Assembly (NCBI RefSeq): GCF_051903065.1
Contig: NZ_CP178438.1
Length of the DNA: 64,000 nucleotides
Origin: Escherichia coli
GTDB lineage: Bacteria; Pseudomonadota; Gammaproteobacteria; Enterobacterales; Enterobacteriaceae
Strand: one strand, 5' to 3'
The first letter of the stretch is position 1. Each line of letters begins with the position of its first letter. The notes beneath the pieces were generated by a model. That model did not search any database and had not been told where the DNA came from. It saw only the letters and a program-made list of their open reading frames with translations. The translations under genes and the position numbers were made by a program. Positions 975 through 49,755 of the stretch are shown piece by piece.

Positions 975-993
975 AGGTCTGCTCAAGCCGTAA

Positions 994-1007
994 TTGATAT
1001 TTGTCAA
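994..1007. promoter_or_regulatory. FNR-box-like inverted repeat TTGATATTTGTCAA just upstream of the fnr start (autoregulatory site)
   Basis: Matches TTGAT-N4-ATCAA at 13 of 14 positions, about 20 nt upstream of the fnr start codon. Confidence 0.55.
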
Positions 1008-1168
1008 TTTTAACATCTTTTTAGGGAGCAAGTAAGTCTAAGCAAACCTTAACAGCAGAGAATTCCGATATTAGATGTAAATATATGTCTATCTATTTGA
1101 AAACCCTTAAGTTGTTAAGGGTAACTTTACATAAAAGTGTGAACAAGCTGGCACAAATTGTTTAATGT

Positions 1169-1684: not shown

Positions 1685-1694
1685 CCGTTCTCTC

Positions 1695-3221
1695 TTAAGA
1701 CAAACGTGGGTAAATACCCGGACCTATCGGCAGACCGACAAGATACCACGCCAGCAACATCAGCAGCCATACCACCAAAAAGATAAGTGGATAGGGCAAG
1801 ACTAACGAATAGTAAGTACCCAGTTTCGCGTCTGGTTTGTAGCGTTGCAGGAATCCAAGAAACAGTGGAACAAAAGGAGATACTGGCGCTAAAGGCAATA
1901 CGGATGAGTCGGCAATACGAAAGAGGATTTGCGCAAATGCCGGGTGAAAGCCAAGTAGCATAAACATTGGTACGAAAATGGGGGCCAGTATCGACCAGAT
2001 TGCGGAACCGCTGGCGATAAACATGCATAAGAAAGAGGAAAGCAACGCCAGACCGACAAACGCCGGGATGCCGCTAAGCCCTGAACTTTCCAGTATATCG
2101 GTCAGCCCCACGGCGATGAATTTCCCCATGTTGCTCCAGTTAAACATGGCGACAAATTGGGCGAGGGGAAAAACCATCACGATAAATCCCGCCATCTCTT
2201 TCATCGGTTCAATCATTAAATGCGGTAAATCCGCCTGACGTCGAATTGTGCGGGTAGCGATGCCATAAGCCAGCGAGACAACAAAGAAAAAAAGAATGAT
2301 CAGTGGCACGATACCTTTAATAAAGGGTGATGGCATCACGGTGTGATTAATCGGATCGCGTAATATCCCGTTTTCCGGGATCACCATCAGCGCAATCGCA
2401 GCAATAAAAAGTAGCGATACGACACCTGCTATGCGTAAACCAAAACGCTGACTTTCGGTCAATGTCTGCAGTTTCTCATCGCTGTTTCCCTGCCATTGAC
2501 CTAACCGTGGCTCGATGATTTTGTCGGTTATCAGGCCGCCAACAATCGTCAGTACGACTACGGAGCTGGCCATAAAATACCAGTTATCAATTACACTGAC
2601 GTGCATTTGCGGATTGAACGCAGCCGCCGCTTCCGTGCTGATCCCCGACAGCAACACGTCGGTTGTGACAATCAGTAAATTAGCCGTAAAGCCGCAACCT
2701 ACGCCTGCAATGGCAGCCAGTAAACCTGCAACTGGATGCCTGCCCACCGCCAGAAAAATCAGCGCACCCATCGGTGGCATGATCACTAACGCCGCATCGG
2801 AAGAAATGTGGCTGAAAAAAGCAATAAACAGCACCATATAACTGGCGTAGCGGGCATTAACATGCGATGCCATTTTAACCATTAGCGCTGGCAGTAAGCC
2901 GACGCGCTCCGCCAGACCGGCACCTAAAACCAGCGCCAGGATCGCACCAAGTGGAGCAAAACCGCTAAAGTTTTTAATAACATTGGGTAAAAACCAGTGT
3001 AATCCTTCAACACTGAGCAGGTTTTTCACCACCACCGGCGTACCATCGGTCGGGTTTTTCGCACTGACGCCAAAGGCCGACAAAATTGCCGTCGTCACCA
3101 TGAGTACGATAATCAAATAGATAAAGAGCAAAAAAGGATGGGGAACCTTGTTACCAATTCTTTCGACCCAGCCATAGAGCTTCCCGGATTGGGAGGACGA
3201 CGGTATGGATGACATACTCAT
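1695..3221 (-). CDS. abgT: p-aminobenzoyl-glutamate transporter (AbgT family)
   Basis: ORF 1695-3227 is polytopic membrane protein [23 protein letters not shown]; start set at 3221 because the GAGG Shine-Dalgarno (complement of 3229-3232) sits about 7 nt upstream. Confidence 0.9.
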
Positions 3222-3257
3222 GGGCATTCCTCGGTTGTTGTGTTTGCGTTGTTGTTG

Positions 3258-4692
3258 TTATTTTAAAGGTGACGGTGTCACGTTTTTCGGGATAGGGCAG
3301 TGGTACGGTTGCGTGTCCGTTACTTGCTGATGCTCTTGTTGGCATTCTTGCAATAGCCCTGAATCAAGGAAGAGATTGACTGTGGTTGCTGCCATAGTTT
3401 TCGCCGCCAGCAGCATTCCTTTATGAGCAATAGATGTTCGCCCCTGGCTAACCAGTTGCCACGTATGTAGGGGTGTACCGACGGCAAAACAGGGGCTGAA
3501 ACACTGGGCAACAGGCAGTTTCCAACTGACGTCGCCGACATCAGTCGATGCCGCAAGCACGTTATCGGTGGCGGCATATGGAGCGACTTCATTCGCCAGT
3601 ACCGTTTCACGATGACGTAGTGCAAAAACCTTGCCGTTTTCGCCACCGGTTGCGGCGATATTATTCAGACTGTTTTGCCGATCGTTGGAGGTGAGCGTAG
3701 CCTGAATTTGTTTCGCAAAAGCCAGTTCTTCGGAGTTCCATTCCGGGGTACCAAAATGGGATAGGGCCTGGTACATGGCATTTTCTAAGGTGCGATTCGG
3801 GAGATAACTGGAACAGGCTTTGTCGAAGCGGCATTCAACCTTGGTTTCGGTCATCAATGCCGCACCTTCGGCGATTTTGGCGACCCGATCATAAATATGC
3901 TGCACGTCGGTCATTTCGGGGGCGCGGATAAGATAAAGCACTTCTGCCTGCGCCTGGACCACGTTGGGCGAGATCCCGCCGCTATTTGTGATGGCATAGT
4001 GTACGCGCGCTTTTTCAATAATATGTTCGTTGAGGAAGTTGGTGCCAGTGGTCATCAACGTTACGGCATCAAGGGCGCTGCGTCCCAAATGAGGGGAATT
4101 CGCGGCATGTGCTGCGATCCCTTTAAAGCGCCATGATGCCTGAATGTTTGCCAGCGTGCGGGTATTGAACATACCGGCAAAGGCTTCCGGGTGCCAGGTG
4201 AGTGCCGCATCCACATCATCAAATACCCCCTCGCGAACCATGAACGTTTTACCCGAGCCGCCTTCTTCGCCAGGACAACCATAAAAGCGCACCGTGCCGC
4301 CTTGCCCATATTGTTCCAGCCATTTCTTGACGGCTATTGCAGCGGCAAAGGCGGCGGTTCCCAGCAAATTGTGTCCGCAACCGTGACCATTTTCACCGGG
4401 CGTCACGGATGTAGGTTGCGCGCAACCTGCTTGCTGACTTAAACCTGCCAGGGCGTCATATTCTCCCAGCAGGGCGATAACCGGTTTGCCTTGACCAAAC
4501 GAAGCAATAAAGGCATTTGGGATATTGCCTACGGGTGAAGCCTGCAGATTCCAGCGCCGAAGCCAGATGCTCCGCTGACCAGAACTCTTCAAAACGTGTT
4601 TCTGGATGATCCCAGATTTGATCGGCAATATCGGTATAACGTTGGCGATCGGCTTCAATCGCATCGTCGATAAAACGATAGATTTCCTGCAT
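3258..4692 (-). pseudogene. abgB: p-aminobenzoyl-glutamate hydrolase subunit B (M20 peptidase), reading frame disrupted near 4530-4540
   Basis: N-terminus MQEIYRFIDDAIEADRQRYTDIADQIWDHPETRFEEFWSAEHLASALESAGFT is in one frame (ORF 4456-4692); the rest from VGNIPNAFIASFGQGKPVIALLGEYD is in the adjacent frame (ORF 3258-4664); the switch is at a GGG run, plus-strand 4533-4535. Confidence 0.8.
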
Positions 4693-6002
4693 CAGATACC
4701 TCGCGTCCAGGGAAAATTGAGCGCGGTGCGCGCCAGCGTTTCGACGGCAATAGCGAGAACCTGCTCGTCAAAATCGAATTTTTCGTTGTGATGACCTGCC
4801 GCCAGCTGTGTGCCAAACACCACGTAGGAGGCTTGCCCTTGATGTTGCTGCACGCGGGCCATCATTAATGTGGCATCTTCGGAACCCGCAGGCGCTTCAA
4901 CACGTTCAATGGCCTGATTAACCCCCGCTACCTGAGCCGCCTGACTTTGCAACCATGCGACCCATTGCGGCGAAGGAGAACTGGCGGTAGCTGCACCCAT
5001 CAGACGAGTTTCAACGCCGACACCATACATGGTTGCTGCGCCCTGAATCGCTTGTTGTGCACGGTCAAAAACATATTGATTAATGACGTCGCTGGCCCCG
5101 CGTGTTTCCACTTTCAGCAACGCCGAGGCAGGAACAACATTACGACCGCTTCCTGCCTGCATAACGCCCACGTTTACTCTGGAAGCGCCTTCGCTGTGCG
5201 GGGCGATTGCATGTAGAGCAAGAGTTGCTTGTGCTGCCGCCAACAAGGCATTGTGACCGTCTTCTGGTTTTGCGCCTGCGTGAGCGGCGGTCCCGGTGAA
5301 GTGCGCGTCAAATTTGGTGGTTGCCATAAAATTATCACTGCCGCACACCACGGTGCCCGCAGGTACGCCAGTGCCAATGTGCACGGCAGTAAAATAATCA
5401 ACATCATCTACGACACCTGCATCGACCATCGCCCGCGCGCCACGCGTACCTTCTTCTGCAGGTTGAAAAATCAGTTTGATGATGCCATGTAGTCCGGACT
5501 CGAACTGTTTAAGGGTATGCGCCAGCCCAAGCCCAATGGCGGTATGCCCATCATGACCACAGGCATGCATCATTCCGGCGTTACATGACGCAAAACCGTC
5601 GCGGTAGGGGCGATGGCTGACATCCTGCTCTTCACTGAGATCCAGCGCGTCCATATCGACACGGAAAGCCATCACCGGACCGGGGCGACCGGTATCCAGG
5701 GTGGCGACGATACCCGTGAAACCACCTTCAAAAGCCGCAATCCATTGTGCTAGCGCACCCTGTTGACGAGCGCGCTCGAATTCGCGTTGTAGAGTGAGTT
5801 CATCAGGTAGTCCCATCCGACTACTTTCATTAACTACTTCGCGGCCCAGCGCCAGTGAATAGCCGAGCTGCTGCAATTCTTCCGCAACAAGGGTGGCAGT
5901 GCGGAATTCCACCCAGCCAGACTCTGCATAGTGATGAAAATCACGTCGCCAGTGCGATAATTTTGGGGCAAGCGAATTAACAAATTGATTCAAAGACTCC
6001 AT
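4692..6002 (-). CDS. abgA: p-aminobenzoyl-glutamate hydrolase subunit A (M20 family)
   Basis: ORF 4692-6017, start trimmed to MESLNQFVNSLAPK (436 aa); stop overlaps the abgB ATG (TGATG). Confidence 0.92.
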   Translation of the reverse strand: MESLNQFVNSLAPKLSHWRRDFHHYAESGWVEFRTATLVAEELQQLGYSLALGREVVNESSRMGLPDELTLQREFERARQQGALAQWIAAFEGGFTGIVATLDTGRPGPVMAFRVDMDALDLSEEQDVSHRPYRDGFASCNAGMMHACGHDGHTAIGLGLAHTLKQFESGLHGIIKLIFQPAEEGTRGARAMVDAGVVDDVDYFTAVHIGTGVPAGTVVCGSDNFMATTKFDAHFTGTAAHAGAKPEDGHNALLAAAQATLALHAIAPHSEGASRVNVGVMQAGSGRNVVPASALLKVETRGASDVINQYVFDRAQQAIQGAATMYGVGVETRLMGAATASSPSPQWVAWLQSQAAQVAGVNQAIERVEAPAGSEDATLMMARVQQHQGQASYVVFGTQLAAGHHNEKFDFDEQVLAIAVETLARTALNFPWTRGI

Positions 6003-6177
6003 AACCTTTCCCGTCATCAGTAAAAAGTGTGACCCGGTTCACGTAGCGATAGTTTTTACTTATCACTAACTGATTTTTCACAGTTTTAACCGTTCATAAA
6101 TTACCCTGACACAATCATCTGCATTAAAGTAGATGCCAGTTTCTTTGGTCTGATAAATAACGGTTATCGGTGGCGTC

Positions 6178-7086
6178 ATGGCTTTTCAGGTAAAAATTCA
6201 TCAAATTCGGGCTTTTGTTGAAGTGGCTCGTCAGGGCAGCATTCGCGGAGCGAGCCGAATGTTGAATATGTCGCAACCGGCACTGAGTAAATCTATTCAG
6301 GAGCTGGAAGAAGGGTTAGCGGCGCAACTCTTTTTTCGCCGTAGTAAAGGTGTGACGTTAACTGATGCCGGTGAAAGTTTTTATCAGCACGCCAGTCTTA
6401 TTCTTGAAGAGCTGCGCGCAGCCCAAGAGGATATTCGCCAACGACAAGGGCAACTGGCAGGGCAGATTAATATCGGCATGGGGGCCAGTATTTCCCGCAG
6501 TCTGATGCCAGCTGTCATATCTCGTTTTCATCAGCAGCATCCGCAGGTAAAAGTACGCATTATGGAAGGGCAACTGGTGTCGATGATTAATGAATTGCGT
6601 CAGGGAGAATTGGATTTCACCATCAATACCTATTATCAGGGACCGTACGACCACGAATTTACTTTTGAGAAATTACTGGAAAAGCAATTCGCGATCTTTT
6701 GCCGCCCGGGACACCCCGCCATTGGTGCCCGTTCGATCAAACAGTTACTGGATTACAGCTGGACAATGCCGACGCCACACGGCAGCTACTACAAACAGTT
6801 GAGTGAATTGCTTGACGATCAGGCGCAAACGCCACAGGTCGGTGTAGTCTGCGAGACGTTCTCAGCCTGTATCAGTCTGGTGGCAAAAAGCGATTTTCTC
6901 AGCATACTGCCTGAAGAAATGGGCTGCGATCCCTTGCACGGACAGGGGCTGGTGATGTTGCCGGTTAGCGAAATTTTACCGAAAGCGGCCTATTATTTGA
7001 TTCAGCGGCGTGATAGTCGCCAGACACCACTGACCGCGTCATTAATCACGCAATTCCGGCGAGAATGCGGCTATCTGCAAAGTTAA
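6178..7086 (+). CDS. abgR: LysR-type transcriptional regulator of the abg operon
   Basis: 302-aa ORF with N-terminal HTH (ASRMLNMSQPALSKSIQELEE), divergent from abgA. Confidence 0.93.
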   Translation: MAFQVKIHQIRAFVEVARQGSIRGASRMLNMSQPALSKSIQELEEGLAAQLFFRRSKGVTLTDAGESFYQHASLILEELRAAQEDIRQRQGQLAGQINIGMGASISRSLMPAVISRFHQQHPQVKVRIMEGQLVSMINELRQGELDFTINTYYQGPYDHEFTFEKLLEKQFAIFCRPGHPAIGARSIKQLLDYSWTMPTPHGSYYKQLSELLDDQAQTPQVGVVCETFSACISLVAKSDFLSILPEEMGCDPLHGQGLVMLPVSEILPKAAYYLIQRRDSRQTPLTASLITQFRRECGYLQS

Positions 7087-7093
7087 AACTGCA

Positions 7094-7188
7094 TAAAAAA
7101 ATAGAGTCTGTCGACATCCGCCAGACTCTACAGTACACACAGCAGTGCATCCGCGTCTTAAATCCGGCATTGTCTCCTCTGCGCCGGT
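7094..7188 (-). ncRNA. mcaS: McaS (IsrA) small RNA with intrinsic terminator
   Basis: abgR-smrA intergenic; minus-strand hairpin TAGAGTCTG / CAGACTCTA (7102-7130) followed by a U7 tract; TATAAC -10 box just upstream of the predicted 5' end; about 95 nt, matching the known position. Confidence 0.7.
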
Positions 7189-7415
7189 GACTGTGTTATA
7201 ACGGTTTTAACCTTTAGTTGCCAATTTTCTTCAGTGACAGATTTCACGAAAATATAAGTTACATTATTAATATCGTGAATGAATAATCATGCATAAGCAT
7301 TTTGCTTAAAATATCGGCAATATTTGGAACTTATTACTGGAATTTTGGGTAATACGTTGTTGGACCGACCCGGTCTGGTTATCATATCGCGCTCTTAATT
7401 GCGGGAGGATGTAAC

Positions 7416-7979
7416 ATGAACCTTGACGACAAATCGCTGTTTCTTGACGCCATGGAAGATGTCCAGCCGCTGAAACGTGCTACCGATGTCCACTGGCATC
7501 CAACGCGTAACCAACGTGCGCCGCAGCGTATCGACACGCTGCAGCTTGATAATTTCCTCACTACCGGATTTCTCGACATTATCCCGCTAAGTCAGCCGCT
7601 GGAGTTTCGGCGGGAAGGGTTGCAACATGGGGTGCTGGATAAGCTGCGTAGTGGTAAATATCCGCAACAGGCGAGCCTGAATCTTTTGCGCCAGCCGGTG
7701 GAAGAGTGCCGCAAAATGGTGTTCAGTTTCATTCAACAAGCCCTGGCGGATGGTTTGCGTAACGTGCTGATTATTCATGGTAAAGGGCGGGATGATAAAT
7801 CGCATGCCAATATTGTCCGCAGCTATGTGGCGCGCTGGCTGACCGAATTTGATGATGTTCAGGCATATTGCACCGCACTACCGCATCATGGCGGCAGCGG
7901 GGCGTGTTACGTCGCACTACGTAAAACGGCGCAGGCGAAGCAAGAAAACTGGGAGCGCCACGCTAAGCGCAGTCGTTGA
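7416..7979 (+). CDS. smrA: Smr-domain DNA endonuclease
   Basis: 187-aa ORF MNLDDKSLFLDAMEDVQPLK with C-terminal Smr domain (LIIHGKGRDDKS). Confidence 0.9.
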   Translation: MNLDDKSLFLDAMEDVQPLKRATDVHWHPTRNQRAPQRIDTLQLDNFLTTGFLDIIPLSQPLEFRREGLQHGVLDKLRSGKYPQQASLNLLRQPVEECRKMVFSFIQQALADGLRNVLIIHGKGRDDKSHANIVRSYVARWLTEFDDVQAYCTALPHHGGSGACYVALRKTAQAKQENWERHAKRSR

Positions 7980-7999
7980 TCTCGAGACGCATCCGCGGC

Positions 8000-9232
8000 T
8001 TATGCCGCCAGCACGCGGTTGCGTCCATCATTTTTCGCCCGATACAAAGCATCATCAACGCGTTTAAACAGTTCATCGATGCTTTCATTTCCTTCGTGAT
8101 GCGCCACACCAATGCTGACGGTAAAGCGTGGTAAGCCCGAAATACTCACTTTTGCCACGCTTACGCGGATAGTTTCAGCCAGCGAAAGTGCAGTATCCAG
8201 TGGGGTTCTTGGTAGCAATAAGACAAACTCTTCGCCTCCCCAACGAAACACCAAATCGCCTTTGCGAGCGCAACTTTCGAGGGTGCGGGCGAGGGCGCAT
8301 AACACCTCATCACCTTTAGAATGCCCATAGAGATCGTTAATGTGTTTAAAACGATCGGTGTCGATGAGCAACAAGCTGTAATCCTGAGCGATGGCGAGAT
8401 GCTGCATTTGGCCTGGTTCCGTAATGTGATAAAACTGTCGCCGATTCAGTAATCCGGTCATCGCGTCATGGTGAGCAGCATGTTCCAGCTGCTCCTCCAG
8501 CCGTTTTTGCTCAGTAATATCATGCACAATACATAACATGAGCTTGTCGCCATAAATTTCAATCGGTCCGGCATAGGTCTGCACATGACGAGTAGAACCA
8601 TCCGCCAGCCTATGAATAAAATTCAAAGGCTTATGACCACCGGGTAAATGCGAGATTTCATGCATGATAGGCATGACGCGACGCCCGAGCATATTAATTT
8701 CCCATGTATGTTTCTGGCACATCGTTTCATGGTTATAACCATAGAAATTGAGCGCGGCGAGGTTAGCATCGACGATTTGGCCATCTCGTGAGGGGTCAAT
8801 CAACAACATTGGTGCAGAGTTAGTCAGAAAAAAGCGCGCATAAAAACCTTGTTTTTTGCGCTGATAATTTGCCGAGCGACTGGCTTTTAAACCCAGCGTT
8901 GTCGGCGCTTCGATTCCTTCGAAAATAATCACCGGTTCTGCTTCTGTCAGCTTTCGCAAAACAAGCCGACAGCTCAATGCTGTTTCCTCTTCATTGCGCT
9001 GAACGGTGAGGATTTCGATAATATCGTGTTGGTTTTGCAGATCGGAGAGGTATTTCGGCAGTTCTTTTTGTGAGGAGACGGAATAGGGACCGGTTCGTAG
9101 CTGACTAAACGTGAGGTCTTGCATCAACAGTCGCGCCGCGCTATTGGCATAAATTAACTGTTCCTCAAAGGGCGAAACGATCCAGACAGGACTGGTGAGT
9201 AAGTCCAGGGTATTGAAGTTGTGCGTAATCAT
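8000..9232 (-). CDS. dgcM: PAS-GGDEF diguanylate cyclase
   Basis: 410-aa ORF with GGEEF active-site motif (VFRWGGEEFVLLL) and N-terminal PAS regions. Confidence 0.93.
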   Translation of the reverse strand: MITHNFNTLDLLTSPVWIVSPFEEQLIYANSAARLLMQDLTFSQLRTGPYSVSSQKELPKYLSDLQNQHDIIEILTVQRNEEETALSCRLVLRKLTEAEPVIIFEGIEAPTTLGLKASRSANYQRKKQGFYARFFLTNSAPMLLIDPSRDGQIVDANLAALNFYGYNHETMCQKHTWEINMLGRRVMPIMHEISHLPGGHKPLNFIHRLADGSTRHVQTYAGPIEIYGDKLMLCIVHDITEQKRLEEQLEHAAHHDAMTGLLNRRQFYHITEPGQMQHLAIAQDYSLLLIDTDRFKHINDLYGHSKGDEVLCALARTLESCARKGDLVFRWGGEEFVLLLPRTPLDTALSLAETIRVSVAKVSISGLPRFTVSIGVAHHEGNESIDELFKRVDDALYRAKNDGRNRVLAA

Positions 9233-9465
9233 TGAGATCCCATTATTTTTATCAATTTTTGTTGCTATCCGATCGCAATAAAGTCACGTCATATGATCAG
9301 ATAATTCTGATAATGATAGACGCTATTTAACACTTCACACGGTTTGTATACGGAAAAGCATTTTGCTTTTTGTATTCAATTTAGACAGAATTTTATTAAT
9401 CATTTCAGGGTAATGGGGTGATGAGATGTTGCGTAACAGGGCCAGAAGGCTAGACTACAAAATAA

Positions 9466-10470
<1,005 letters not shown>

Positions 10471-10516
10471 CAAAAGCAATTTTTCCGGCTGTCTGTATAC
10501 AAAAACGCCGCAAAGT

Positions 10517-10530
10517 TTGAGCGAAGTCAA
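10517..10530. promoter_or_regulatory. FNR-box-like site TTGAGCGAAGTCAA upstream of fnrS
   Basis: TTGAN-N4-NTCAA half-sites centred about 41 nt upstream of the predicted fnrS 5' end, with a CAATAT -10-like hexamer at 10553-10558. Confidence 0.55.
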
Positions 10531-10565
10531 TAAACTCTCTACCCATTCAGGGCAATATCTCTCTT

Positions 10566-10687
10566 GCAGGTGAATGCAACGTCAAGCGATGGGCGTTGCG
10601 CTCCATATTGTCTTACTTCCTTTTTTGAATTACTGCATAGCACAATTGATTCGTACGACGCCGACTTTGATGAGTCGGCTTTTTTTT
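10566..10687 (+). ncRNA. fnrS: FnrS small RNA (FNR-activated) with intrinsic terminator
   Basis: zntB-dbpA intergenic; canonical terminator GCCGACT-ttgatga-GTCGGC then T8 (10660-10687); C/U-rich single-stranded stretch CTTACTTCCTTTTTT; about 122 nt. Confidence 0.7.
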
Positions 10688-10744
10688 GCCTGTTATTTAT
10701 CAGCGTCTACCCTTTAAGAGTCCACCCAATGACCAGAGGGAAAT

Positions 10745-10918
10745 ATGACGACACTTATTTATTTGCAAATTCCTGTCCCTGAACCGATTCCTGGCGATCC
10801 TGTTCCAGTGCCCGATCCGATCCCTCGCCCGCAACCCATGCCTGACCCACCACCCGATGAAGAACCGATTAAATTGTCGCATCGTGAACGTAGATCTGCG
10901 AGGATACGCGCCTGCTAA
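10745..10918 (+). CDS. hypothetical proline-rich small protein (57 aa) upstream of dbpA
   Basis: ATG at 10745 with GAGGG Shine-Dalgarno 6 nt upstream; translation MTTLIYLQIPVPEPIPGDPVPVPDPIPRPQPMPDPPPDEEPIKLSHRERRSARIRAC; below the 60-aa cut-off of the ORF track. Confidence 0.3.
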   Translation: MTTLIYLQIPVPEPIPGDPVPVPDPIPRPQPMPDPPPDEEPIKLSHRERRSARIRAC

Positions 10919-10947
10919 CTTTGCGTCGATGACCACGAGAATAGATT

Positions 10948-12321
10948 GTGACCGCTTTTTCTACCCTGAATGTTTTGCCTCCCGCCCAACTCACGAACCT
11001 TAATGAGTTGGGTTATTTAACCATGACGCCGGTGCAGGCCGCCGCGCTTCCGGCGATCCTTGCCGGAAAAGATGTTCGCGTGCAGGCGAAAACCGGCAGC
11101 GGCAAAACGGCGGCTTTTGGCCTCGGCTTGTTACAGCAAATTGATGCGTCGCTATTTCAAACCCAGGCTTTAGTGCTGTGTCCTACGCGTGAACTGGCGG
11201 ATCAGGTGGCAGGTGAATTGCGTCGGCTGGCGCGTTTTCTGCCAAATACCAAAATTTTGACGTTGTGCGGTGGTCAACCGTTCGGTATGCAGCGTGATTC
11301 GTTGCAACATGCGCCGCATATTATCGTGGCAACGCCGGGTCGTTTGCTGGATCACTTGCAAAAAGGCACGGTATCACTGGATGCGCTGAATACTTTGGTG
11401 ATGGATGAGGCCGACCGCATGCTGGATATGGGATTTAGCGATGCCATTGATGATGTCATCCGTTTTGCGCCTGCATCTCGACAGACGCTTCTGTTTTCGG
11501 CAACCTGGCCGGAAGCCATCGCTGCAATCAGCGGACGAGTGCAACGCGATCCTTTGGCGATTGAAATTGACTCAACAGATGCTTTGCCACCCATTGATCA
11601 ACAATTTTATGAGACATCCAGTAAAGGCAAAATTCCTCTGTTGCAACGGTTATTAAGCTTGCATCAGCCATCCTCTTGCGTGGTGTTTTGCAATACCAAA
11701 AAAGATTGCCAGGCTGTCTGCGACGCGCTGAATGAAGTAGGGCAAAGTGCATTGTCATTACACGGCGATTTGGAGCAACGCGATCGTGATCAGACCTTGG
11801 TACGTTTTGCTAACGGTAGCGCCCGTGCACTGGTCGCGACTGATGTTGCTGCGCGTGGTCTGGATATTAAATCGCTTGAGCTGGTGGTGAACTTTGAGCT
11901 GGCGTGGGACCCTGAAGTTCATGTACATCGCATCGGTCGTACAGCTCGTGCAGGAAATAGCGGTCTGGCGATCAGTTTCTGTGCTCCGGAAGAAGCACAG
12001 CGGGCCAATATCATTTCTGACATGTTGCAGATAAAACTTAACTGGCAAACGCCGCCAGCTAATAGTTCCATTGTGACGCTGGAAGCAGAAATGGCAACGT
12101 TGTGTATCGATGGCGGGAAAAAAGCCAAAATGCGCCCGGGTGATGTATTAGGTGCACTGACAGGAGATATCGGGCTTGATGGCGCAGATATTGGCAAAAT
12201 CGCCGTGCATCCGGCGCATGTCTATGTCGCGGTCCGTCAGGCTGTTGCTCATAAAGCATGGAAACAGTTACAGGGCGGGAAGATTAAAGGAAAAACGTGC
12301 CGGGTGCGGTTATTAAAATAA
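10948..12321 (+). CDS. dbpA: DEAD-box ATP-dependent RNA helicase (23S rRNA specific)
   Basis: 457-aa ORF with GTG start, Walker A (AKTGSGKT), DEAD box (VMDEADRMLDMGF), SAT and HRIGRTAR motifs. Confidence 0.95.
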   Translation: MTAFSTLNVLPPAQLTNLNELGYLTMTPVQAAALPAILAGKDVRVQAKTGSGKTAAFGLGLLQQIDASLFQTQALVLCPTRELADQVAGELRRLARFLPNTKILTLCGGQPFGMQRDSLQHAPHIIVATPGRLLDHLQKGTVSLDALNTLVMDEADRMLDMGFSDAIDDVIRFAPASRQTLLFSATWPEAIAAISGRVQRDPLAIEIDSTDALPPIDQQFYETSSKGKIPLLQRLLSLHQPSSCVVFCNTKKDCQAVCDALNEVGQSALSLHGDLEQRDRDQTLVRFANGSARALVATDVAARGLDIKSLELVVNFELAWDPEVHVHRIGRTARAGNSGLAISFCAPEEAQRANIISDMLQIKLNWQTPPANSSIVTLEAEMATLCIDGGKKAKMRPGDVLGALTGDIGLDGADIGKIAVHPAHVYVAVRQAVAHKAWKQLQGGKIKGKTCRVRLLK

Positions 12322-12369
12322 TGAAATGTTGAATTGCCGGGTGCAAGAGTAAACATCTTATTCGGGATT

Positions 12370-12439
12370 GCCGGATGCGACGCTGGCCGCGTCTTATCCG
12401 GCCTCCATAAGAGTAGCCCGATACGCTTGCGCATCGGGC
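12370..12439. repeat. REP-type extragenic palindromes between convergent dbpA and ttcA
   Basis: GCCGGATGCGACGCTGGCCGCGTCTTATCCGGCCTCC (12370-12406) plus hairpin GCCCGAT / ATCGGGC (12416-12439). Confidence 0.5.
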
Positions 12440-12449
12440 GCTATCCTGG

Positions 12450-13385
12450 TTATTTCACTTCAACCACATTCAGCCGTAACTCATCCAACTGATTTTCATC
12501 TTCTTCTGGCTGCCAGCCCGCCGGTTGTAGTGGGATCTCTTCGCGATCAAACGCCAGATCACCCCCGTTAACCACTTCAGAACCGTGGGTGATGCCTTTG
12601 AAATCGAACAGGTTGGTATCGCACAGATGCGACGGCACCACATTCTGCATCGCGCTGAACATCGTCTCGATACGCCCTGGATAACGTTTATCCCAGTCAC
12701 GCAACATGTCAGCAATCACCTGACGTTGCAGGTTAGGCTGTGAACCGCACAGGTTGCACGGAATAATCGGGAACGCTTTTGCATCGGCAAATCGCTGAAT
12801 ATCTTTCTCGCGGCAGTAGGCCAGCGGACGAATAACGATATGTTTGCCATCATCGCTCATCAGTTTCGGAGGCATACCTTTCATCTTGCCGCCGTAGAAC
12901 ATATTTAAGAACAACGTTTGCAGGATATCGTCACGATGGTGGCCCAACGCGATCTTCGTCGCCCCCAGTTCCGTTGCGGTGCGATAAAGGATACCGCGAC
13001 GTAGCCGAGAACACAGTGAGCAAGTGGTTTTGCCCTCTGGAATCTTCTCTTTCACGATACCGTAAGTGTTCTCTTCAACAATCTTGTACTCAACGCCCAG
13101 CTTTTCAAGATACTCGGGCAGAACGTGTTCCGGGAAGCCCGGTTGCTTTTGATCGAGGTTAACAGCCACCAGCGAAAAATTGATTGGCGCGCTTTGCTGC
13201 AAATTGCGCAGAATCTCCAGCATGGTATAGCTGTCTTTACCCCCGGAGAGGCAAACCATGATGCGATCGCCTTCTTCAATCATATTGAAGTCAGCAATGG
13301 CTTCGCCCACGTTACGACGCAGGCGTTTTTGTAATTTGTTCAGATTGTATTGTTCTTTCTTGCTAATTTCTTGATTTTGCGACAT
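12450..13385 (-). CDS. ttcA: tRNA 2-thiocytidine(32) synthetase
   Basis: 311-aa ORF with PP-loop SGGKDS and CxxC pairs (CSLCSR, CNLCGS). Confidence 0.93.
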
Positions 13386-13524
13386 TTAAAAGCGACTCAA
13401 TTCGTTATATGGCATCAGAAGAGTATGCGTCATGCCGGAACGCCCAGCATAAGAAATCTGATATAAAAACTGTGGCGTGTATGGTACGGATTAGAGGGGA
13501 AAATGTCAGCACATTTGCGAAATG

Positions 13525-13553
13525 AATCAAAAAGCCCGCAGCAATGTGCGGGC
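13525..13553 (-). terminator. intrinsic terminator downstream of uspF
   Basis: Minus-strand hairpin GCCCGCA-cattgc-TGCGGGC followed by a T-rich run (TTTTTGATTCATTT). Confidence 0.55.
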
Positions 13554-13560
13554 GTTAGTG

Positions 13561-14076
<516 letters not shown>

Positions 14077-14135
14077 TTAGATCAAAGGAGGAAGAATAAG
14101 CAGAAAAAGCCCGCCATAACAGCGGGCAGGAGGAT

Positions 14136-15269
14136 TTAGAACTGATAAACCAGACCTAAAGCGACAATATCATCGGTAGAGATGCCGTTGGCAGCGTAGA
14201 AACTGTCATCTTCATCCAACAGGTTGATTTTATAGTCAACATAAGTGGACATGTTTTTATTGAAATAGTAAGTCGCGCCAACATCGGCGTATTTAACCAG
14301 ATCTTTATCATCAACACCTGCCGGGTTGTCTGCACCACCGGCAGCGTGCAGGTCACGGCCTTTAGACATCAGGAAAGAGACTGCCGGACGCAGACCAAAA
14401 TCAAACTGGTACTGTGCAGTGACTTCAAAGTTCTGGGTTTTGTTTGCAACAGCATAATCGCTGTCGCCAAACGGGGTCATATTACGCGTTTCTGAATACA
14501 TGGTTGCCAGGTAAATATTGTTAGCATCGTATTTTAGCCCAGCAGTCCACGCGTCTGCTTTATCACCACCCGCCGCAGTATGGTTAACCTGGTCATTGGT
14601 GCGGTCAGAAGAGGTGTATGCCGCACCAGCGCTAAAGCCCATGCCTAAATCATATGTTGTGGAAAGACCCCAGCCGTCACCGTTTTCATGGCGAACATCA
14701 CGTCCGTTGTTGGTGCCTTCCTGACCATTACTGGCTCCTTCGTTGTTACCTTGATACTGCACCGCGAAGTTCAGACCATTTACCAGACCGAAGAAATCAG
14801 TATTACGATAAGTCGCGACGCCATTGGCTCGACCAGTCATAAAGTTGTCTGCATTGGTATAAGAGTCACCGCCAAATTCAGGCTGCATATCGGTCCAGCC
14901 TTCGATGTCGTACATTACGCCATAATTACGTCCGTAATCGAAAGAACCGTAATCTGCAAATTTCAGTCCGGCAAATGCCAGACGGGTCCATGACTGGTTT
15001 TTTGAAGATTCAGTGTTGTTTGCCTGAATATTGTATTCCCATTGACCGTAGCCAGTAAGTTGATCGTTAATTTGGGTTTCGCCTTTAAAACCCAGACGCG
15101 CATAGCTCTGGTCGCCATCTTTCGCTGAATTATCAGAAAAATAATGCAGGCCATCAACTTTGCCATACAGATCTAATTTGTTGCCGTCTTTATTATAAAC
15201 TTCGGCTGCATGTGCAGCACCTGCGGCGAGCAGGGCAGGAATTAAAAGTGCCAGTACTTTGCTTTTCAT
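14136..15269 (-). CDS. ompN: outer membrane porin N (OmpC/F family)
   Basis: 377-aa ORF with signal peptide [37 protein letters not shown] and C-terminal ...GLVYQF. Confidence 0.93.
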
Positions 15270-15496
15270 TGAATAAATCCTTTAGTTATTTTATTTGCCT
15301 TTTATCCCCATTTCGGGGAGTGAAAACATCCTAAAGGAGAAGTTCAGTTAGCCGATAAATATCATTTGTTACGCCTTAAGTAAAACCTTAATCAAATAAT
15401 TCCTCTGAAATGATAATAAGTCTGGTGAATGTATCGAAGATAATACATACAAAATAAAAATTATACTTTTAATTTTCTATACGTTATTCTGCGCGG

Positions 15497-15606
15497 GTTA
15501 TATGCCTTTATTGTCACAGATTTTATTTTTTGTTGGGCCATTGCATTGCCACTGATTTTCCAACATATAAAAAGACAAGCCCGAACAGTCGTCCGGGCTT
15601 TTTTTT
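15497..15606 (+). ncRNA. micC: MicC small RNA (ompC regulator) with intrinsic terminator
   Basis: ompN-pfo intergenic; begins GTTATATGCCTTTATTGTCACAGATTTTATTTT and ends with hairpin GCCCG-aacagtcgtc-CGGGC plus T8 (15579-15606); about 110 nt, divergent from ompN. Confidence 0.85.
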
Positions 15607-15634
15607 AGAATTGGATAATCCTTATCCAGAGCAT

Positions 15635-18600
15635 TTAATCGGTGTTGCTTTTTTCCGCTTTTCCGGCCATTTGTGCCAGGAAGTCATAGCGTTTTTGCAA
15701 ATCAGCTGCAGCATCTTTCCATAACTGTTCTGCCACTTCTGGCTGCTGCGAATTCAGACGACGGAAACGTTGCTCGTGAAGTAACGTTTCTTCCAGTGCT
15801 TCTGACGGCGGGCGTGAATCCAGCGCCAGCGGCAGTTTGCCTTCATCGGCACGACGCGGATCGAAGCGATATAGCGGCCAGAAGCCGGTAGCTGTGAGTT
15901 GGCGCATCTGGTCATGGCTGAGTGCCAGATCGTAACCATGCTCTTCACACGGGCTATAAGCAATGATCAGCGATGGTCCCGGATACGCTTCCGCTTCCTG
16001 AATCGCTTTCACCGTCTGGTTCAGTTGCGCGCCGAGAGAAATCTGCGCCACATAAACATGACCGTACATCATCATACTGACGCCAAGATCTTTACGCGCT
16101 TTACGTTTGCCGTGCTCGCCAAATTTAGTTACTGCACCCAGCGGTGTCGCTTTCGACGCCTGACCACCGGTGTTGGAATAGCATTGCGTATCCAGCACCA
16201 GAATGTTGACGTTTTCCGTCAAACTCAATACATGATCCAGACCGCCAAAGCCGATATCGTAAGCCCAGCCGTCGCCACCAATCAGCCAGATTGATTTTTC
16301 TACCAGTGCATCTGCGTCACGCAGCAGTTCATGTGCTTCGGCAACATCGTTGAGTTGCTGGCGTAAAGCTGCAACCTGATCACGACGAACCTCTGGCGTA
16401 GCGTCTGATTTCAACGCCGTCAGTAATTCCGCCGGGATTTTATCGGCAAATTGATCCAGCAGACGCAGCACGCGGACACGGTGTTGATCGACCGTCAGGC
16501 GGAAACCCAGGCCAAATTCGGCGTTATCTTCAAACAGCGAGTTCGCCCATGCCGGCCCGCGACCGTTGGCATCGGTAGTATACGGTGTAGAGGGCAGGTT
16601 ACCGCCATAAATTGAAGAACAGCCAGTGGCGTTAGCGATCAACATCCGGTCGCCATAGAGCTGAGTCAGCAATTTAATATACGGTGTCTCGCCACAACCG
16701 GAGCAAGCACCGGAATATTCAAACAGCGGTGTAATCAGCTGCGATGTACGAATATCAATACGTTCCAGTTTGCTACGGTCGATTTCTGGCAGGTTGAGGA
16801 AGAAATCGTAATTGATTTTCTCTTCTTCGACATGTTCCAGGCGCGACATCATATTGATGGCTTTAATCTCTGGATTCTGACGGTCTTTCGCCGGGCAAAC
16901 TTCGACGCACAGGTTACAACCGGTGCAATCTTCCGGAGCCACCTGCAAGACATATTTCTGCCCGCGCATATCACGCGATTTCACATCCAGCGAATGCAGG
17001 CTGGCAGGGGCGTTTTCCATCGCTTCAGGCGGCACCACTTTTGCGCGAATAGCTGAGTGTGGGCAAGCGGCAACGCAGTGGTTACATTGGGTACAGAGTT
17101 CCTCTTTCCAGATGGGGATCTCTTCGGCGATATTGCGTTTTTCCCAGCGTGTAGTGCCCATCGGCCAGGTGCCGTCTGGCGGCAGCGCCGAAACGGGGAG
17201 GGCATCACCAAGCCCGGCGAGCATCGCAGCGGTTACGGTTTTCACGAAATCAGGGGCGGCATCGGAAACCACAGGCGGTCGATTGGCGCTGTGCGGATTA
17301 ACCGGCTGCAACGGAACTTCTTCCACGGATTCACGCGCCAGCGCCAGAGCCTGCCAGTTGCGCTCCACCAGATCCTGACCTTTGCTACTGTAACTTTTGG
17401 CAATCGCACCCTGCAATTCTGCGAGGGCGCTATCGCCAGGCAGAATTTGCGTCAGATGGAAAAAAGCCATCTGCATGACGGTATTAATACGGGCCGCCAG
17501 GCCACATTCGCGGGCGATTTTCGCTGCGTTAATCACATAGAAGCGCGCTTTTTTCTGGTTTAGCACGGCCTGAACTTCCTGCGGCAAGCGCGACCACACT
17601 TCATCTGCGCTGTACGGCGTGTTGAGCAGGAAAATGCCGCCAGGTTTTAAACGCTCAGCCATCTGATATTTATCGATAAACTGCAACTGGTGGCAGCCAA
17701 CAAAATCAGCCTGGGAAATGAGATAAGCGGAACGAATCGGCTGTTCGCTCACGCGAAGGTGAGAAACCGTCAGGCCGCCCGCCTTTTTGGAGTCGTAAAC
17801 AAAATAGCCCTGTGCGTACCACGGCGTGGAATTACCGATAATCTTGATATTGTTTTTGGTCGCGGAAACGCTGCCATCACTACCAAGGCCATAAAACAAG
17901 GCTTCCAGTTTCGCCGAGTTTGGCAGGGTGTTTTCCGGCAACGGCAGTGACAGATTGGTCACATCATCGTAAATACCAACCGTAAAGCGCGCTTTCGGTT
18001 TAGCCGCGTTGAGCTCGGCAAATACCGCCAGTACACAGTCCGGGCCAAATTCTTTGGATGAAAGACCATAGCGCCCACCAATGACACGGGGCAGAGTTTC
18101 GCGCTCGCCATTATTAAAGGCTTCTGCCAGTGCGGTCATTACATCCAGATAGAGCGGTTCTGCCTGGGCACCGGGTTCTTTGGTTCTGTCCAGTACCGCC
18201 ACGCTGCGTACGGATCCCGGCAGAGCTTGCAGCAAGTGTTTGGCGGAGAAGGGACGGTACAGGCGAACTTTCAGCACGCCAACTTTTTCGCCACGGGTTA
18301 GCAATTCATCAACCACTTCTTCACAGGTGCCAATGGCAGAGCCCATCAGGATAATCACCCGTTCCGCTTGCGGATGCCCGTAATATTCAAACGGCTGATA
18401 CTGACGACCTGTCGCGGCAGAGAAATCATTCATCGCCTGTTCAACATGGTCATAGACCGCGTTGTACCATGGGTTGGTGGCTTCGCGAGACTGGAAATAA
18501 GTGTCAGGATTGGCTGACGTACCGCGGATCACCGGATGTTCCGGGTTGAGCGCCCGGGCGCGATGAGCATCAATTTCGGCCTGCGGCATGAGATCAAGAA

Positions 18601-19159
18601 TAGTGTCATCGGCCAGCGGGACAATTTTATTGATTTCGTGGGACGTACGGAAACCATCAAAGAAATGAATAAATGGCACGCGGCTTTTCAGCGTCGCGAT
18701 GTGCGAAATGAGAGCAAAGTCTTGCGCTTCCTGGACGTTTGCCGCACACAACATCGCGCAACCCGTCTGGCGCACCGCCATGACGTCGGAATGATCGCCA
18801 AAAATAGAGAGTGCATGTGTGGCAACGGTACGTGCCGCTACATGCAGGACAAACGGTGTGAGTTCGCCTGCCAGTTTGTACAGCGTCGGGATCATCAGCA
18901 GCAAACCCTGCGATGACGTAAACGATGTTGAAAGGGCACCCGTCTGCAAAGCGCCATGCACGGTAGCGATAGCACCCGCTTCCGACTGCATTTCAACCAC
19001 GCGTGGTGTGTCTCCCCAAACGTTCTTCAAGCCGTTTCCGGCCCAGGCATCAGCCTGTTCTGCCATCGTGGAACTGGGGGTAATAGGGTAGATGGCGATA
19101 ACTTCACTGGTGCGAAACGCCACCGAAGCAACCGCGCCATTACCGTCAATAGTAATCAT
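15635..19159 (-). CDS. pfo: pyruvate:flavodoxin oxidoreductase
   Basis: 1174-aa ORF MITIDGNGAVASVAFRTSEVIAIYPITPSS with two ferredoxin-type Cys clusters (CTQCNHCVAACP, CTGCNLCVEVCP) and a TPP-binding region. Confidence 0.95.
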   Translation of the reverse strand: MITIDGNGAVASVAFRTSEVIAIYPITPSSTMAEQADAWAGNGLKNVWGDTPRVVEMQSEAGAIATVHGALQTGALSTSFTSSQGLLLMIPTLYKLAGELTPFVLHVAARTVATHALSIFGDHSDVMAVRQTGCAMLCAANVQEAQDFALISHIATLKSRVPFIHFFDGFRTSHEINKIVPLADDTILDLMPQAEIDAHRARALNPEHPVIRGTSANPDTYFQSREATNPWYNAVYDHVEQAMNDFSAATGRQYQPFEYYGHPQAERVIILMGSAIGTCEEVVDELLTRGEKVGVLKVRLYRPFSAKHLLQALPGSVRSVAVLDRTKEPGAQAEPLYLDVMTALAEAFNNGERETLPRVIGGRYGLSSKEFGPDCVLAVFAELNAAKPKARFTVGIYDDVTNLSLPLPENTLPNSAKLEALFYGLGSDGSVSATKNNIKIIGNSTPWYAQGYFVYDSKKAGGLTVSHLRVSEQPIRSAYLISQADFVGCHQLQFIDKYQMAERLKPGGIFLLNTPYSADEVWSRLPQEVQAVLNQKKARFYVINAAKIARECGLAARINTVMQMAFFHLTQILPGDSALAELQGAIAKSYSSKGQDLVERNWQALALARESVEEVPLQPVNPHSANRPPVVSDAAPDFVKTVTAAMLAGLGDALPVSALPPDGTWPMGTTRWEKRNIAEEIPIWKEELCTQCNHCVAACPHSAIRAKVVPPEAMENAPASLHSLDVKSRDMRGQKYVLQVAPEDCTGCNLCVEVCPAKDRQNPEIKAINMMSRLEHVEEEKINYDFFLNLPEIDRSKLERIDIRTSQLITPLFEYSGACSGCGETPYIKLLTQLYGDRMLIANATGCSSIYGGNLPSTPYTTDANGRGPAWANSLFEDNAEFGLGFRLTVDQHRVRVLRLLDQFADKIPAELLTALKSDATPEVRRDQVAALRQQLNDVAEAHELLRDADALVEKSIWLIGGDGWAYDIGFGGLDHVLSLTENVNILVLDTQCYSNTGGQASKATPLGAVTKFGEHGKRKARKDLGVSMMMYGHVYVAQISLGAQLNQTVKAIQEAEAYPGPSLIIAYSPCEEHGYDLALSHDQMRQLTATGFWPLYRFDPRRADEGKLPLALDSRPPSEALEETLLHEQRFRRLNSQQPEVAEQLWKDAAADLQKRYDFLAQMAGKAEKSNTD

Positions 19160-19432
19160 ATGACACCCTTACATTGCGCAAATGAGGGGCGCACGAAATT
19201 GCTGCGCGCCCAGTAGTAATCCTTCAATTTTAGCAAATGGCTTTCTTCTGCATTTTCGCTTTTGTGTCCCCCACATCAGCGTAATGAATGTTTTGATCAA
19301 ACAGAGGGCAAAAAAATAGCCATAAAAAAGTAAAAATGCGGGGCAACGCGCAGGACAGCTCTCGACGCCGCCCTCTGCGCTGCCTATTATTTATGGCGGT
19401 GTCGTTTGGCTTGAAGATCAGAGGAAGAAGAG

Positions 19433-19699
19433 ATGCGAGCAGCGTTTTGGGTAGGGTGTGCCGCTTTATTGTTGTCGGCGTGTAGTAGTGAGCCTGTTCA
19501 GCAGGCGACTGCGGCGCACGTAGCGCCAGGTTTAAAAGCGTCGATGTCCAGTAGTGGAGAAGCAAATTGTGCAATGATCGGCGGTTCGCTTTCTGTTGCC
19601 CGTCAACTGGATGGTACGGCGATTGGGATGTGTGCATTACCCAACGGCAAACGCTGTAGCGAACAGTCACTTGCCGCCGGGAGCTGTGGCAGCTATTAA
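19433..19699 (+). CDS. ydbJ: small lipoprotein of unknown function
   Basis: 88-aa ORF with lipobox (LLLSACSS). Confidence 0.8.
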   Translation: MRAAFWVGCAALLLSACSSEPVQQATAAHVAPGLKASMSSSGEANCAMIGGSLSVARQLDGTAIGMCALPNGKRCSEQSLAAGSCGSY

Positions 19700-20118
19700 T
19701 TCATTAAATCCGCCAGCTTATAAGTTAATGTCTGTTTCGCGGTCGCCAGCGTTAACTGGTTCGCGGTCAGATCCACTTGTGCACCTTCTTTCAGCATTTC
19801 GCTAATGGTGTTATCGAGTTCATTAAGCTGCGGGTTAGCGCACATCATACGGGTCATTGCTAGCCCTTTGGCTGTCAGTTCACCATTAGACAGTTTGCCT
19901 TCACCGCTAAAGCGGTTACACATGCTGCCGGAAATCATCATTTTTTCACCAAAGCTGATTTCTGGCGGATTTTTATCGCTGGTCACGGGCTTACCGTTTA
20001 CGCTTTCCAGCACAAAGCGATGATGCTGTAGCTGTTCTGGCGTAACAGCAATTTTGTCGTTACTTACACATCCCGCCATCAGCAGGCTTAGCGCAACAAA
20101 CGCGGCTACTTTCTTCAT
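19696..20118 (-). CDS. hslJ: heat-inducible lipoprotein HslJ (META domain)
   Basis: ORF 19696-20130 trimmed to MKKVAAFVALSLLMAGCVSN (140 aa), lipobox LMAGC. Confidence 0.88.
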   Translation of the reverse strand: MKKVAAFVALSLLMAGCVSNDKIAVTPEQLQHHRFVLESVNGKPVTSDKNPPEISFGEKMMISGSMCNRFSGEGKLSNGELTAKGLAMTRMMCANPQLNELDNTISEMLKEGAQVDLTANQLTLATAKQTLTYKLADLMN

Positions 20119-20228
20119 TGTGGTTCTCAATTACAGTTTCTGACTCAGGACTATTTTAAGAATAGAGAATGAAAGGTCATTGGGGATTATCTGAATCAGC
20201 TCCCCTGGAATGCAGGGGAGCGGCAAGA

Positions 20229-21218
20229 TTAAACCAGTTCGTTCGGGCAGGTTTCACCTTTTTCCAGATTGCTTAAGTTTTGCAGCGTAGTCTGAGAAAT
20301 ACTGGTCAGAGCTTCTGCTGTCAGGAATGCCTGGTGCCCGGTAAACAGCACGTTGTGGCAGGCAGACAGGCGACGGAATACGTCATCCTGGATCACGTCG
20401 TTGGATTTATCTTCAAAGAACAGATCGCGTTCGTTCTCATACACGTCCATACCCAACGAACCAATTTTCTGATTTTTCAGCGCTTCAATTGCTGCCTGAG
20501 AATCAATCAATGCACCGCGACTGGTATTGACGATCATCACGCCATTTTTCATCTGATCGAAGGCGGCTTCGTTCAACAGATGGTAGTTTTCCGGTGTCAG
20601 CGGGCAGTGCAGAGAGATAACGTCTGATTCAGAGAACAGGGTTGGCAGATCGACATACTCCACACCGAGTTCCAGCGCCGCTGCACTTGGATACGGATCG
20701 AACGCCAGCAGACGCATACCAAAACCTTTCAGAATGCGCAGCATCGCCACACCGATTTTACCGGTACCGATAACGCCTGCCGTTTTGCCATACATAGTAA
20801 AGCCGGTCAGACCTTCCAGAGAGAAGTTAGCGTCACGGGTACGCTGATACGCGCGGTGAATACGGCGGTTCAGCGTCATCATCATACCGATGGCGTGTTC
20901 AGCAACGGCCTCTGGATCATAGGCTGGAACACGGACTACTTTCAGCCCCAGTTCTTTTGCCGCATCAAGGTCGACGTTATTGAAACCGGCACAGCGCAGG
21001 GCGATATATTTAACGCCGTGCTTTTTCAGCTCTTCCAGCACCGGGCGGCTGCCGTCATCGTTTACGAAAATACATACCGCTTCGCAGCCATTGGCAGTTT
21101 TAGCGGTTTTTTCCGTCAGCAGAAAGTCAAAAAATTCCAGCTCAAAGCCAAAGGACTCGTTCACCTGTTGCAGGTACTTCTTGTCGTACTGTTTTGTGCT
21201 ATAAACGGCGAGTTTCAT
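20229..21218 (-). CDS. ldhA: fermentative D-lactate dehydrogenase (NAD-dependent)
   Basis: 329-aa ORF MKLAVYSTKQYDKKYLQQVNE with NAD-binding GVIGTGKIG motif. Confidence 0.96.
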   Translation of the reverse strand: MKLAVYSTKQYDKKYLQQVNESFGFELEFFDFLLTEKTAKTANGCEAVCIFVNDDGSRPVLEELKKHGVKYIALRCAGFNNVDLDAAKELGLKVVRVPAYDPEAVAEHAIGMMMTLNRRIHRAYQRTRDANFSLEGLTGFTMYGKTAGVIGTGKIGVAMLRILKGFGMRLLAFDPYPSAAALELGVEYVDLPTLFSESDVISLHCPLTPENYHLLNEAAFDQMKNGVMIVNTSRGALIDSQAAIEALKNQKIGSLGMDVYENERDLFFEDKSNDVIQDDVFRRLSACHNVLFTGHQAFLTAEALTSISQTTLQNLSNLEKGETCPNELV

Positions 21219-21425
21219 AAGACTTTCTCCAGTGATGTTGAATCACATTTAAGCTACTAAAAATATTTTACAAAATTTCAAATTTAATTGAAAGCTATGG
21301 CGATATTGAAAAATTCATCAACAACTATGCTTAGTGTAGGCGCAACCTTCAACTGAACGGTTAAACATGCCACAATACCCGTATTGAATGCTTAATTTTT
21401 CGCTAAATCAGGATATTAACTACCC

Positions 21426-49547: not shown

Positions 49548-49734
<187 letters not shown>

Positions 49735-49755
<21 letters not shown>

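Follow-up and report, generated by a model that had tools for sequence, protein, structure and literature searches.

An apparently unoccupied attachment site for Rac-type phages in the 5′ end of Escherichia coli ttcA, with an integrase gene fossil upstream

The DNA analyzed here, called the window, is a 64-kb stretch of Escherichia coli chromosomal sequence (64,000 nucleotides). Its open reading frame (ORF) list places dbpA on the plus strand at positions 10948 to 12321, followed on the minus strand by ttcA (12450 to 13385), uspF (13561 to 13995), ompN (14136 to 15269), and ydbK/nifJ (15635 to 19159). The ttcA gene, which is also present in the RefSeq annotation, is intact and encodes a tRNA 2-thiocytidine-32 synthetase of 311 amino acids that matches the Pfam PP-loop family (PF01171, E = 1e-13). 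The call of uspF, which encodes universal stress protein F, is supported by the RefSeq annotation and by its K-12 equivalent. Between the start codon of ttcA and the stop codon of uspF lies a spacer of 175 bp (13386 to 13560). Strain ECNB21-M121 is 100% identical to the window over 12400 to 14100, and the RefSeq gene calls agree.

Sequence and folding identified an intrinsic terminator for uspF on the minus strand at 13534 to 13553. Its hairpin has a 7-bp stem, six pairs of which are G-C, and is followed by TTTTT (−14.1 kcal/mol; z = −3.4 versus shuffled sequences), which places a GC-rich hairpin and a U-run just past the uspF stop codon. An Rfam search of 13250 to 13700 at E ≤ 1 assigned no family to the spacer; the sole match, STnc310 over the terminator, was below threshold (19 bits versus a gathering score of 40). 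Across the whole window, Rfam found only known small RNAs: McaS (7093 to 7188), FnrS (10566 to 10683), MicC (15494 to 15614), and RydC (49069 to 49132), along with Sok (49692 to 49843), the antitoxin RNA of a hok/sok-type locus, all at their expected positions.

The order of genes in K-12 MG1655 is dbpA, ttcA, intR, xisR, the rest of the Rac prophage, the ttcC pseudogene, uspF, and ompN, with Rac annotated at 1411899..1434958 (23,060 bp). Local blastn of the window against 92 kb of K-12 produced one block that aligns window positions 1 to 13378 with K-12 1398553 to 1411941 and a second that aligns 13336 to 24576 with 1434959 to 1446201. The 43 nt shared by the two blocks (13336 to 13378) correspond to the att duplication. 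Because the blocks are collinear, the window equals K-12 minus exactly the 23,060 bp of Rac, and experimental excision of Rac deletes the same 23,060 bp (PMC11014345). Searches of the entire 64-kb window found no DNA from the Rac interior and no homologs of IntR or XisR at E < 0.07. The spacer at 13386 to 13560 differs from the K-12 DNA on the right of attR by a single nucleotide in an A-run, and it is present only once in K-12, at that position. Thus, no prophage DNA separates the two flanks; the sole trace is a 51-nt integrase fossil, described below, which in K-12 also lies outside Rac.

An earlier note on this DNA had stated that ttcA lies directly next to the uspF terminator and gene with no prophage genes between them, and the 175-bp spacer, free of int, xis, and Rac DNA, agrees with that description. 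Its statement that Rac lies between ttcA and uspF in K-12 is likewise borne out, both by the MG1655 annotation and by the two-block alignment. The alignment to K-12, which the earlier note had suggested as a check, confirmed the Rac-free junction and showed that Rac integrates in the 5′ end of ttcA. The Rac-free ttcA-uspF junction is itself ordinary, common, and already described.

A three-way alignment of the window with attL and attR of K-12 revealed that the two prophage ends share a perfect 26-nt repeat, TTGTTCAGGTTGTATTGTTCTTTCTT. The corresponding sequence of the window, TTGTTCAGATTGTATTGTTCTTTCTT, occupies 13336 to 13361, within codons 9 to 17 of ttcA, and the attL/attR duplication identifies it as the unoccupied attB core for phages of the Rac/IntR type. 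It is identical to the K-12 core at 25 of 26 nt, with a synonymous A in place of G at position 9 (13344), and to the attL core of E. coli W at all 26 of 26. The Rac-SA53 record annotates an att site at the same 26 positions. The core occurs once in the window, versus none expected from 100 shuffles, and both of its flanks are of the host type, agreeing on the left with the host side of attL in K-12 and on the right with that of attR. Published work also locates the integration of Rac at the 5′ end of ttcA (PMC4632033; reviewed in PMC6379469).

The earlier note had proposed 13386 to 13560 as the attachment region, and that interval does sit between the genes that flank Rac in K-12. The att site, however, is 25 to 50 nt to its left: the repeat at 13336 to 13361 and its extension to 13385 fall wholly within ttcA, in keeping with the literature, and the single copy of the flagged interval in K-12 lies to the right of attR. 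The three-way alignment thus refutes this placement, and we consider it exceedingly improbable that the flagged interval is itself the Rac attachment site. It is the host flank, which in lysogens is found approximately 23 kb from ttcA, beside ttcC. We conclude, with a probability of roughly 93%, that Rac-type temperate phages have an unoccupied attB here, a simple core-type site contained in the first 50 nt of ttcA.

Comparison of attL with attR further identified ttcA codons 1 to 8 (13362 to 13385, minus strand) as the native portion that is swapped for a surrogate by Rac-type phages. These codons form an imperfect extension of the repeat, in which attL and attR of K-12 differ at 7 of 24 positions. 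TtcA of the window begins with MSQNQEIS, the same N terminus as the product of the K-12 ttcC pseudogene. K-12 TtcA begins instead with MQENQQIT, differing at residues 2, 3, 6, and 8, because the phage brings in a surrogate ttcA 5′ end that includes a start codon. Liu et al. (2015) reported that excision of Rac alters four TtcA residues, giving a Rac-free form like that in the window (PMC4632033), and our attL/attR comparison, with changes at residues 2, 3, 6, and 8, agrees with theirs. In a 2023 NAR paper, the residue changes given are limited to Q6E and T8S, together with three base changes (PMC11014345), versus the four residues of the earlier report; the shorter list probably reflects incomplete variant calling near the junction. 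Apart from the N-terminal swap, the sole amino acid change in TtcA relative to K-12 is Gly290 in place of Cys290 (codon 290, window position 12518).

Polymorphisms in two natural lysogens allowed the crossover to be mapped within the core, on the assumption that they predate integration. At core position 9, E. coli W has the host A in attL, as in the window, and the phage G in attR; at core positions 16 to 18, Rac-SA53 has the phage ATC in attL and the host TGT in attR. Taken together, these alleles indicate that exchange occurred between core positions 9 and 16, and the predicted overlap segment is TTGTAT at 13345 to 13350, which on this sequence comparison is the most likely site of strand exchange. 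Overlap regions of tyrosine recombinases are 6 to 8 bp long, and the length of TTGTAT fits. Inspection by eye showed no clear inverted core-type half-sites around this segment. A match to the IHF consensus, TAATTTCTTGATT, is present next to the core at 13364 to 13376, within codons 1 to 8, and Kasho et al. detected IHF on the copy of this motif that lies in attL (PMC8407004).

The predicted attP arms of K-12 and the attP of phage PHB10 contain GGGGCA/GGGGCAAA repeats that are lacking in the window; inspection of the window spacer by eye found no arm-type GGGGCAAA repeats. In the deposited genome of PHB10, attP is arranged in the order phage arm, core-like sequence, surrogate ttcA 5′ end, GGGGCA repeats, and int. 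The restriction of the repeats and of int-xis to the phage side fits the pairing of a simple attB with a complex attP. In these respects the site resembles the attB/attP pair of lambda-type phages, in which a tyrosine recombinase has its arm-type sites in attP alone: here too, attB is short and simple, the repeats and int-xis are on the phage side only, and an IHF consensus is found beside the core. The repeats are probably arm-type binding sites for IntR. They occur on both phage arms, at 26806 to 26850 and 3972 to 3992 of the K-12 locus as we extracted it (L001) and at 1571 to 1590 of the PHB10 locus (L094), and lysogens from several genera conserve them, in the form TTTGCCCC...TGCCCC, in the spacer between int and ttcA. 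Our literature search found neither a description of the GGGGCA/GGGGCAAA repeats nor any biochemical mapping of IntR core or arm sites.

The spacer upstream of ttcA contains a fossil of an IntR-type integrase gene. Over 51 nt on the minus strand (13466 to 13516), it aligns without gaps to nt 1033 to 1083 of K-12 intR, with 39 of 51 nt identical and an exact run of 15 nt; weaker similarity to intR extends to about 13430. This portion of intR encodes KRAGIRRRNPYHTRHTF, the HxxR region of box II (KxAxIxxxNPYHTRHxF). The orientation of the fossil relative to ttcA is that of intR in lysogens. What is left amounts to only about 17 to 29 codons about the HxxR box, in a frame that ends at 13430, so that there is no ORF with the R-H-R-Y catalytic domain of a tyrosine recombinase gene (PF00589). 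An ORF of 51 codons at 13430 to 13585 on the minus strand, overlapping the 3′ end of uspF, is simply the leftover frame of the fossil (...SNPYHTRHSF...), and we judge a genuine gene there very improbable.

The similarity to intR could in principle have arisen by chance. With IntR as the tblastn query, the spacer (13531 to 13466) gave the best match in the whole window at only E = 0.076, and Pfam found no family, and hence no integrase domain, in the translated fragment. The Smith-Waterman score of 42, however, was reached by none of 1,000 dinucleotide shuffles (mean, 20.7; standard deviation, 2.2; maximum, 32). The comparison with other genera also weighs heavily against chance. We compared the DNA directly upstream of ttcA at loci from 80 species and found a graded series. 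An intact IntR-type integrase gene is present in an E. coli-like metagenome-assembled genome (MAG), in Enterobacter cloacae, and in another MAG, while a long C-terminal integrase remnant remains in E. albertii, Enterobacter spp., Kluyvera, RIT691, and Brenneria. A short relic of about 45 to 50 nt, consisting of the block only and placed upstream of ttcA in the same orientation, was found in E. coli, Citrobacter, Pseudocitrobacter, E. asburiae, Enterobacter sp. BIGb0383, Superficieibacter, Mangrovibacter, and Pectobacterium; nothing was detectable upstream of ttcA in Serratia, Yersinia, and Rosenbergiella among these loci. With shorter relics grading through longer remnants into intact genes, a chance match is very improbable.

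The presence of the fossil in the spacer indicates that the site has been used before. The earlier note had described the junction as the native, Rac-free 5′ region of ttcA; this holds insofar as the resident upstream region has been kept and matches K-12 to the right of attR, but the flank is not free of phage ancestry, since it holds the integrase fossil. The "native" 5′ region of ttcA is probably what remains of an ancient prophage at its left end. Our search of the literature on ttcA, Rac, and integrase found no description of such a fossil.

The relics of E. coli and Citrobacter are orthologous: both lie beside uspF and 107 nt from the ATG of ttcA, in spacers that are approximately 88 to 90% identical. 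The fossil therefore predates the split of these genera. The flanks of the short relics are otherwise unrelated to each other, yet every relic, remnant, and intact case matches the 14-mer AATCCGTACCATAC with 0 or 1 mismatch. The first eight codons of ttcA are hypervariable and adjoin an invariant segment of the protein.

Conservation of the block at the level of DNA is also evident in intact integrase genes. We compared K-12 IntR with the integrases of PHB10 and of an E. cloacae prophage, each with about 70% protein identity. Within a block of 19 codons, where the amino acid was identical, the codon was also identical in 17 of 18 and 18 of 19 cases, versus approximately 37 to 39% in the rest of int (Fisher p = 3e-6 and 4e-7). 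Across the last ~70 codons of int, synonymous identity is modestly higher, with its maximum at the block. Paralogous integrases directed at wrbA, yehV, yecE, and other sites keep the protein motif (KRAGxRxRxxYxSRHTxA) while their codons vary freely, which ties the constraint on the DNA to ttcA.

The earlier note had also assigned the native ttcA promoter to this junction. A consensus scan of the minus strand located a candidate ttcA promoter at 13481 to 13509, inside the fossil, with a −35 element, CTGACA (13509 to 13504), a spacing of 17 nt, and a −10 element, TACCAT (13486 to 13481). It is the only pair of promoter-like hexamers upstream of ttcA in the window and matches the consensus at 9 of 12 positions, although the scan returned 2 sites versus 1.7 expected by chance. 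The −10 element falls within the invariant 14-mer AATCCGTACCATAC and is itself invariant across genera. If this is the ttcA promoter, transcription would be expected to start near 13474. We found no ttcA transcription start in the searchable literature, and folding of the putative leader (13376 to 13476, minus strand) gave no sign of structure (z = 0.0). From these sequence features we infer that the fossil block may be, or may overlap, the promoter of ttcA. As a wider proposal, the upstream region of ttcA in E. coli and many other Enterobacterales would be a domesticated piece of an integrase gene, with a replacement promoter inside box II and the block kept by the host. We put this forward tentatively, at somewhat less than even odds.

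The block might instead have been kept for reasons other than promoter activity, such as repeated recombination or gene conversion with incoming int genes that keeps refreshing the relic, binding of a regulator, or a function on the phage side. Lysogens such as K-12 have the int gene and the relic as direct repeats about 23 kb apart, and Rac encodes RecET, which acts on short homologies; both points speak for recombination. In addition, the elevated synonymous conservation takes in all of the last ~70 codons of int and not the block alone, and the −35 hexamer of the phage copies is CTGGTA, a poor match in comparison with CTGACA of the window. Against such explanations, short relics in distant genera keep the same ~45 nt between unrelated flanks, the relic shared by E. 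coli and Citrobacter is old and has the −35 element nearer to consensus, and the integrases that target wrbA, yehV, and yecE encode the same protein motif with free codons. We regard retention for a non-promoter reason as a serious contender, likewise at somewhat less than even odds.

Under the promoter proposal, integration at the 5′ end of ttcA would sever the gene from its promoter, and the phage would have to supply another. The phage-supplied promoter would overlap the box II codons of int, and this overlap would freeze the synonymous sites of ttcA-targeting integrases. After decay of the prophage, the host would keep the block, such that the "empty" attB would represent the fossilized left end of an earlier prophage, with the hypervariable first eight codons of ttcA reflecting repeated replacement by successive phages. 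Remnants of integrase genes beside the att sites of decayed, or grounded, prophages are similar in that a 3′ fragment of int persists beside the target gene in its original orientation. The fragment at ttcA differs from these in having been cut to the same ~45 to 50 nt, with nearly invariant nucleotides, in many genera, and this near-invariance suggests co-option. The conserved integrase-derived block is the one point of possible novelty at this locus. Should it prove to be the ttcA promoter, it would illustrate clearly how phages that integrate at 5′ ends keep their target gene expressed and how hosts recycle prophage debris as regulatory DNA.

For integration itself, the arrangement of the site suggests the following sequence of events. 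The Rac-type phage would carry, next to its core, a surrogate 5′ end of ttcA (eight codons together with a start codon), the GGGGCA(A) repeats, and int-xis. Exchange by IntR within the 26-nt core (13336 to 13361) would insert the phage at ttcA and rejoin the gene to the phage-borne 5′ end, so that native codons 1 to 17 and the flagged spacer would end up beyond the prophage, in the place of ttcC in K-12. In the strain examined here, insertion has either never happened or been precisely reversed, and ttcA is therefore read from the resident upstream region to give the MSQNQEIS form of the protein.

Other prophages also integrate within the ends of protein genes and provide a surrogate end, including e14 in icd, Qin in ydfJ, and DLP12 at argU (PMC6379469). 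As at ttcA, the att core lies in coding sequence, the phage has a near copy of the displaced end, and excision alters few residues. The Rac site differs from these in that the 5′ end is replaced, so that the phage must also supply a start codon and transcription signals. A close likeness is to attB of Δrac K-12, which produces TtcA′ (PMC4632033): the gene, the position of the core, the MSQNQEIS N terminus, and the neighbors dbpA-ttcA-uspF-ompN are all alike, and the window differs from it by the A at 13344, a synonymous change at 13362, and 1 nt in the A-run of the spacer. The main value of the empty site lies in giving a reference for the ancestral N terminus of TtcA and a landing site for Rac-type phages.

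To place this empty site among other strains, we surveyed 5,426 complete E. coli genomes. At most 2,487 have ttcA and uspF contiguous; a genome was counted if one place covered ≥80% of a 1.7-kb query, with pieces up to ~1.35 kb apart joined, so that the number sets an upper limit on strictly empty sites. The K-12-type ttcA-intR-xisR junction is present in 1,842 of the 5,426. The remaining genomes include remnants and rearrangements, as exemplified by strain S22EC, in which a truncated integrase and ~2.3 kb are left between ttcA and uspF, and by strain CAVP776, which has IS1 and different DNA where ttcA would be.

The A variant at 13344 was found in 162 to 164 genomes (~3% of complete E. coli), of which only 53 have the exact 67-nt empty configuration with this variant. 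We considered whether the A marks sites refractory to the phage and dropped this idea, since attL of the occupied site in E. coli W also has the A, adjoining a 49-kb Rac-type prophage. The variant is thus compatible with occupancy, and the A-variant core exists in both empty and occupied states. The E. coli W prophage at the ttcA site (within NC_017635.1, 1500300 to 1550299) is apparently complete and contains structural genes, two tRNA genes, a DUF262/AAA-ATPase pair, and a Hok/Gef toxin gene.

The site in the window could once have been occupied by a modern Rac and restored by precise excision through IntR and XisR. Rac is known to excise precisely, regenerating exactly the arrangement of the window and the TtcA′ N terminus, and E. 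coli strains show a mixture of occupied and empty sites, with the A-allele core in both. No scar speaks in favor of curing, but precise excision leaves none, and a site that was never occupied and one that was cured have identical sequences. We consider past occupancy by modern Rac to be unlikely, though well within the range of plausible histories.

Outside the ttcA locus, the segment at 24576 to 29766 has no counterpart in the K-12 interval that was compared. It takes the place of approximately 26 kb of K-12 (1446201 to 1472161) comprising feaR, feaB, tynA, the paa cluster, and the 5′ part of ydbA, and at least 80% of 24400 to 29900 is covered in only 218 of the 5,426 genomes. The ORFs at 24947 to 28819 and 29636 to 31627 encode a ydbA-like autotransporter of the pectate-lyase fold. 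The gene is split by a 768-bp IS1 element at 28739 to 29506 with a 9-bp target duplication, GCCGGGACG. This insertion is absent from ECNB21-M121, the strain that is identical at the ttcA locus, and is common to strains 23CRST027 and 23CRST031.
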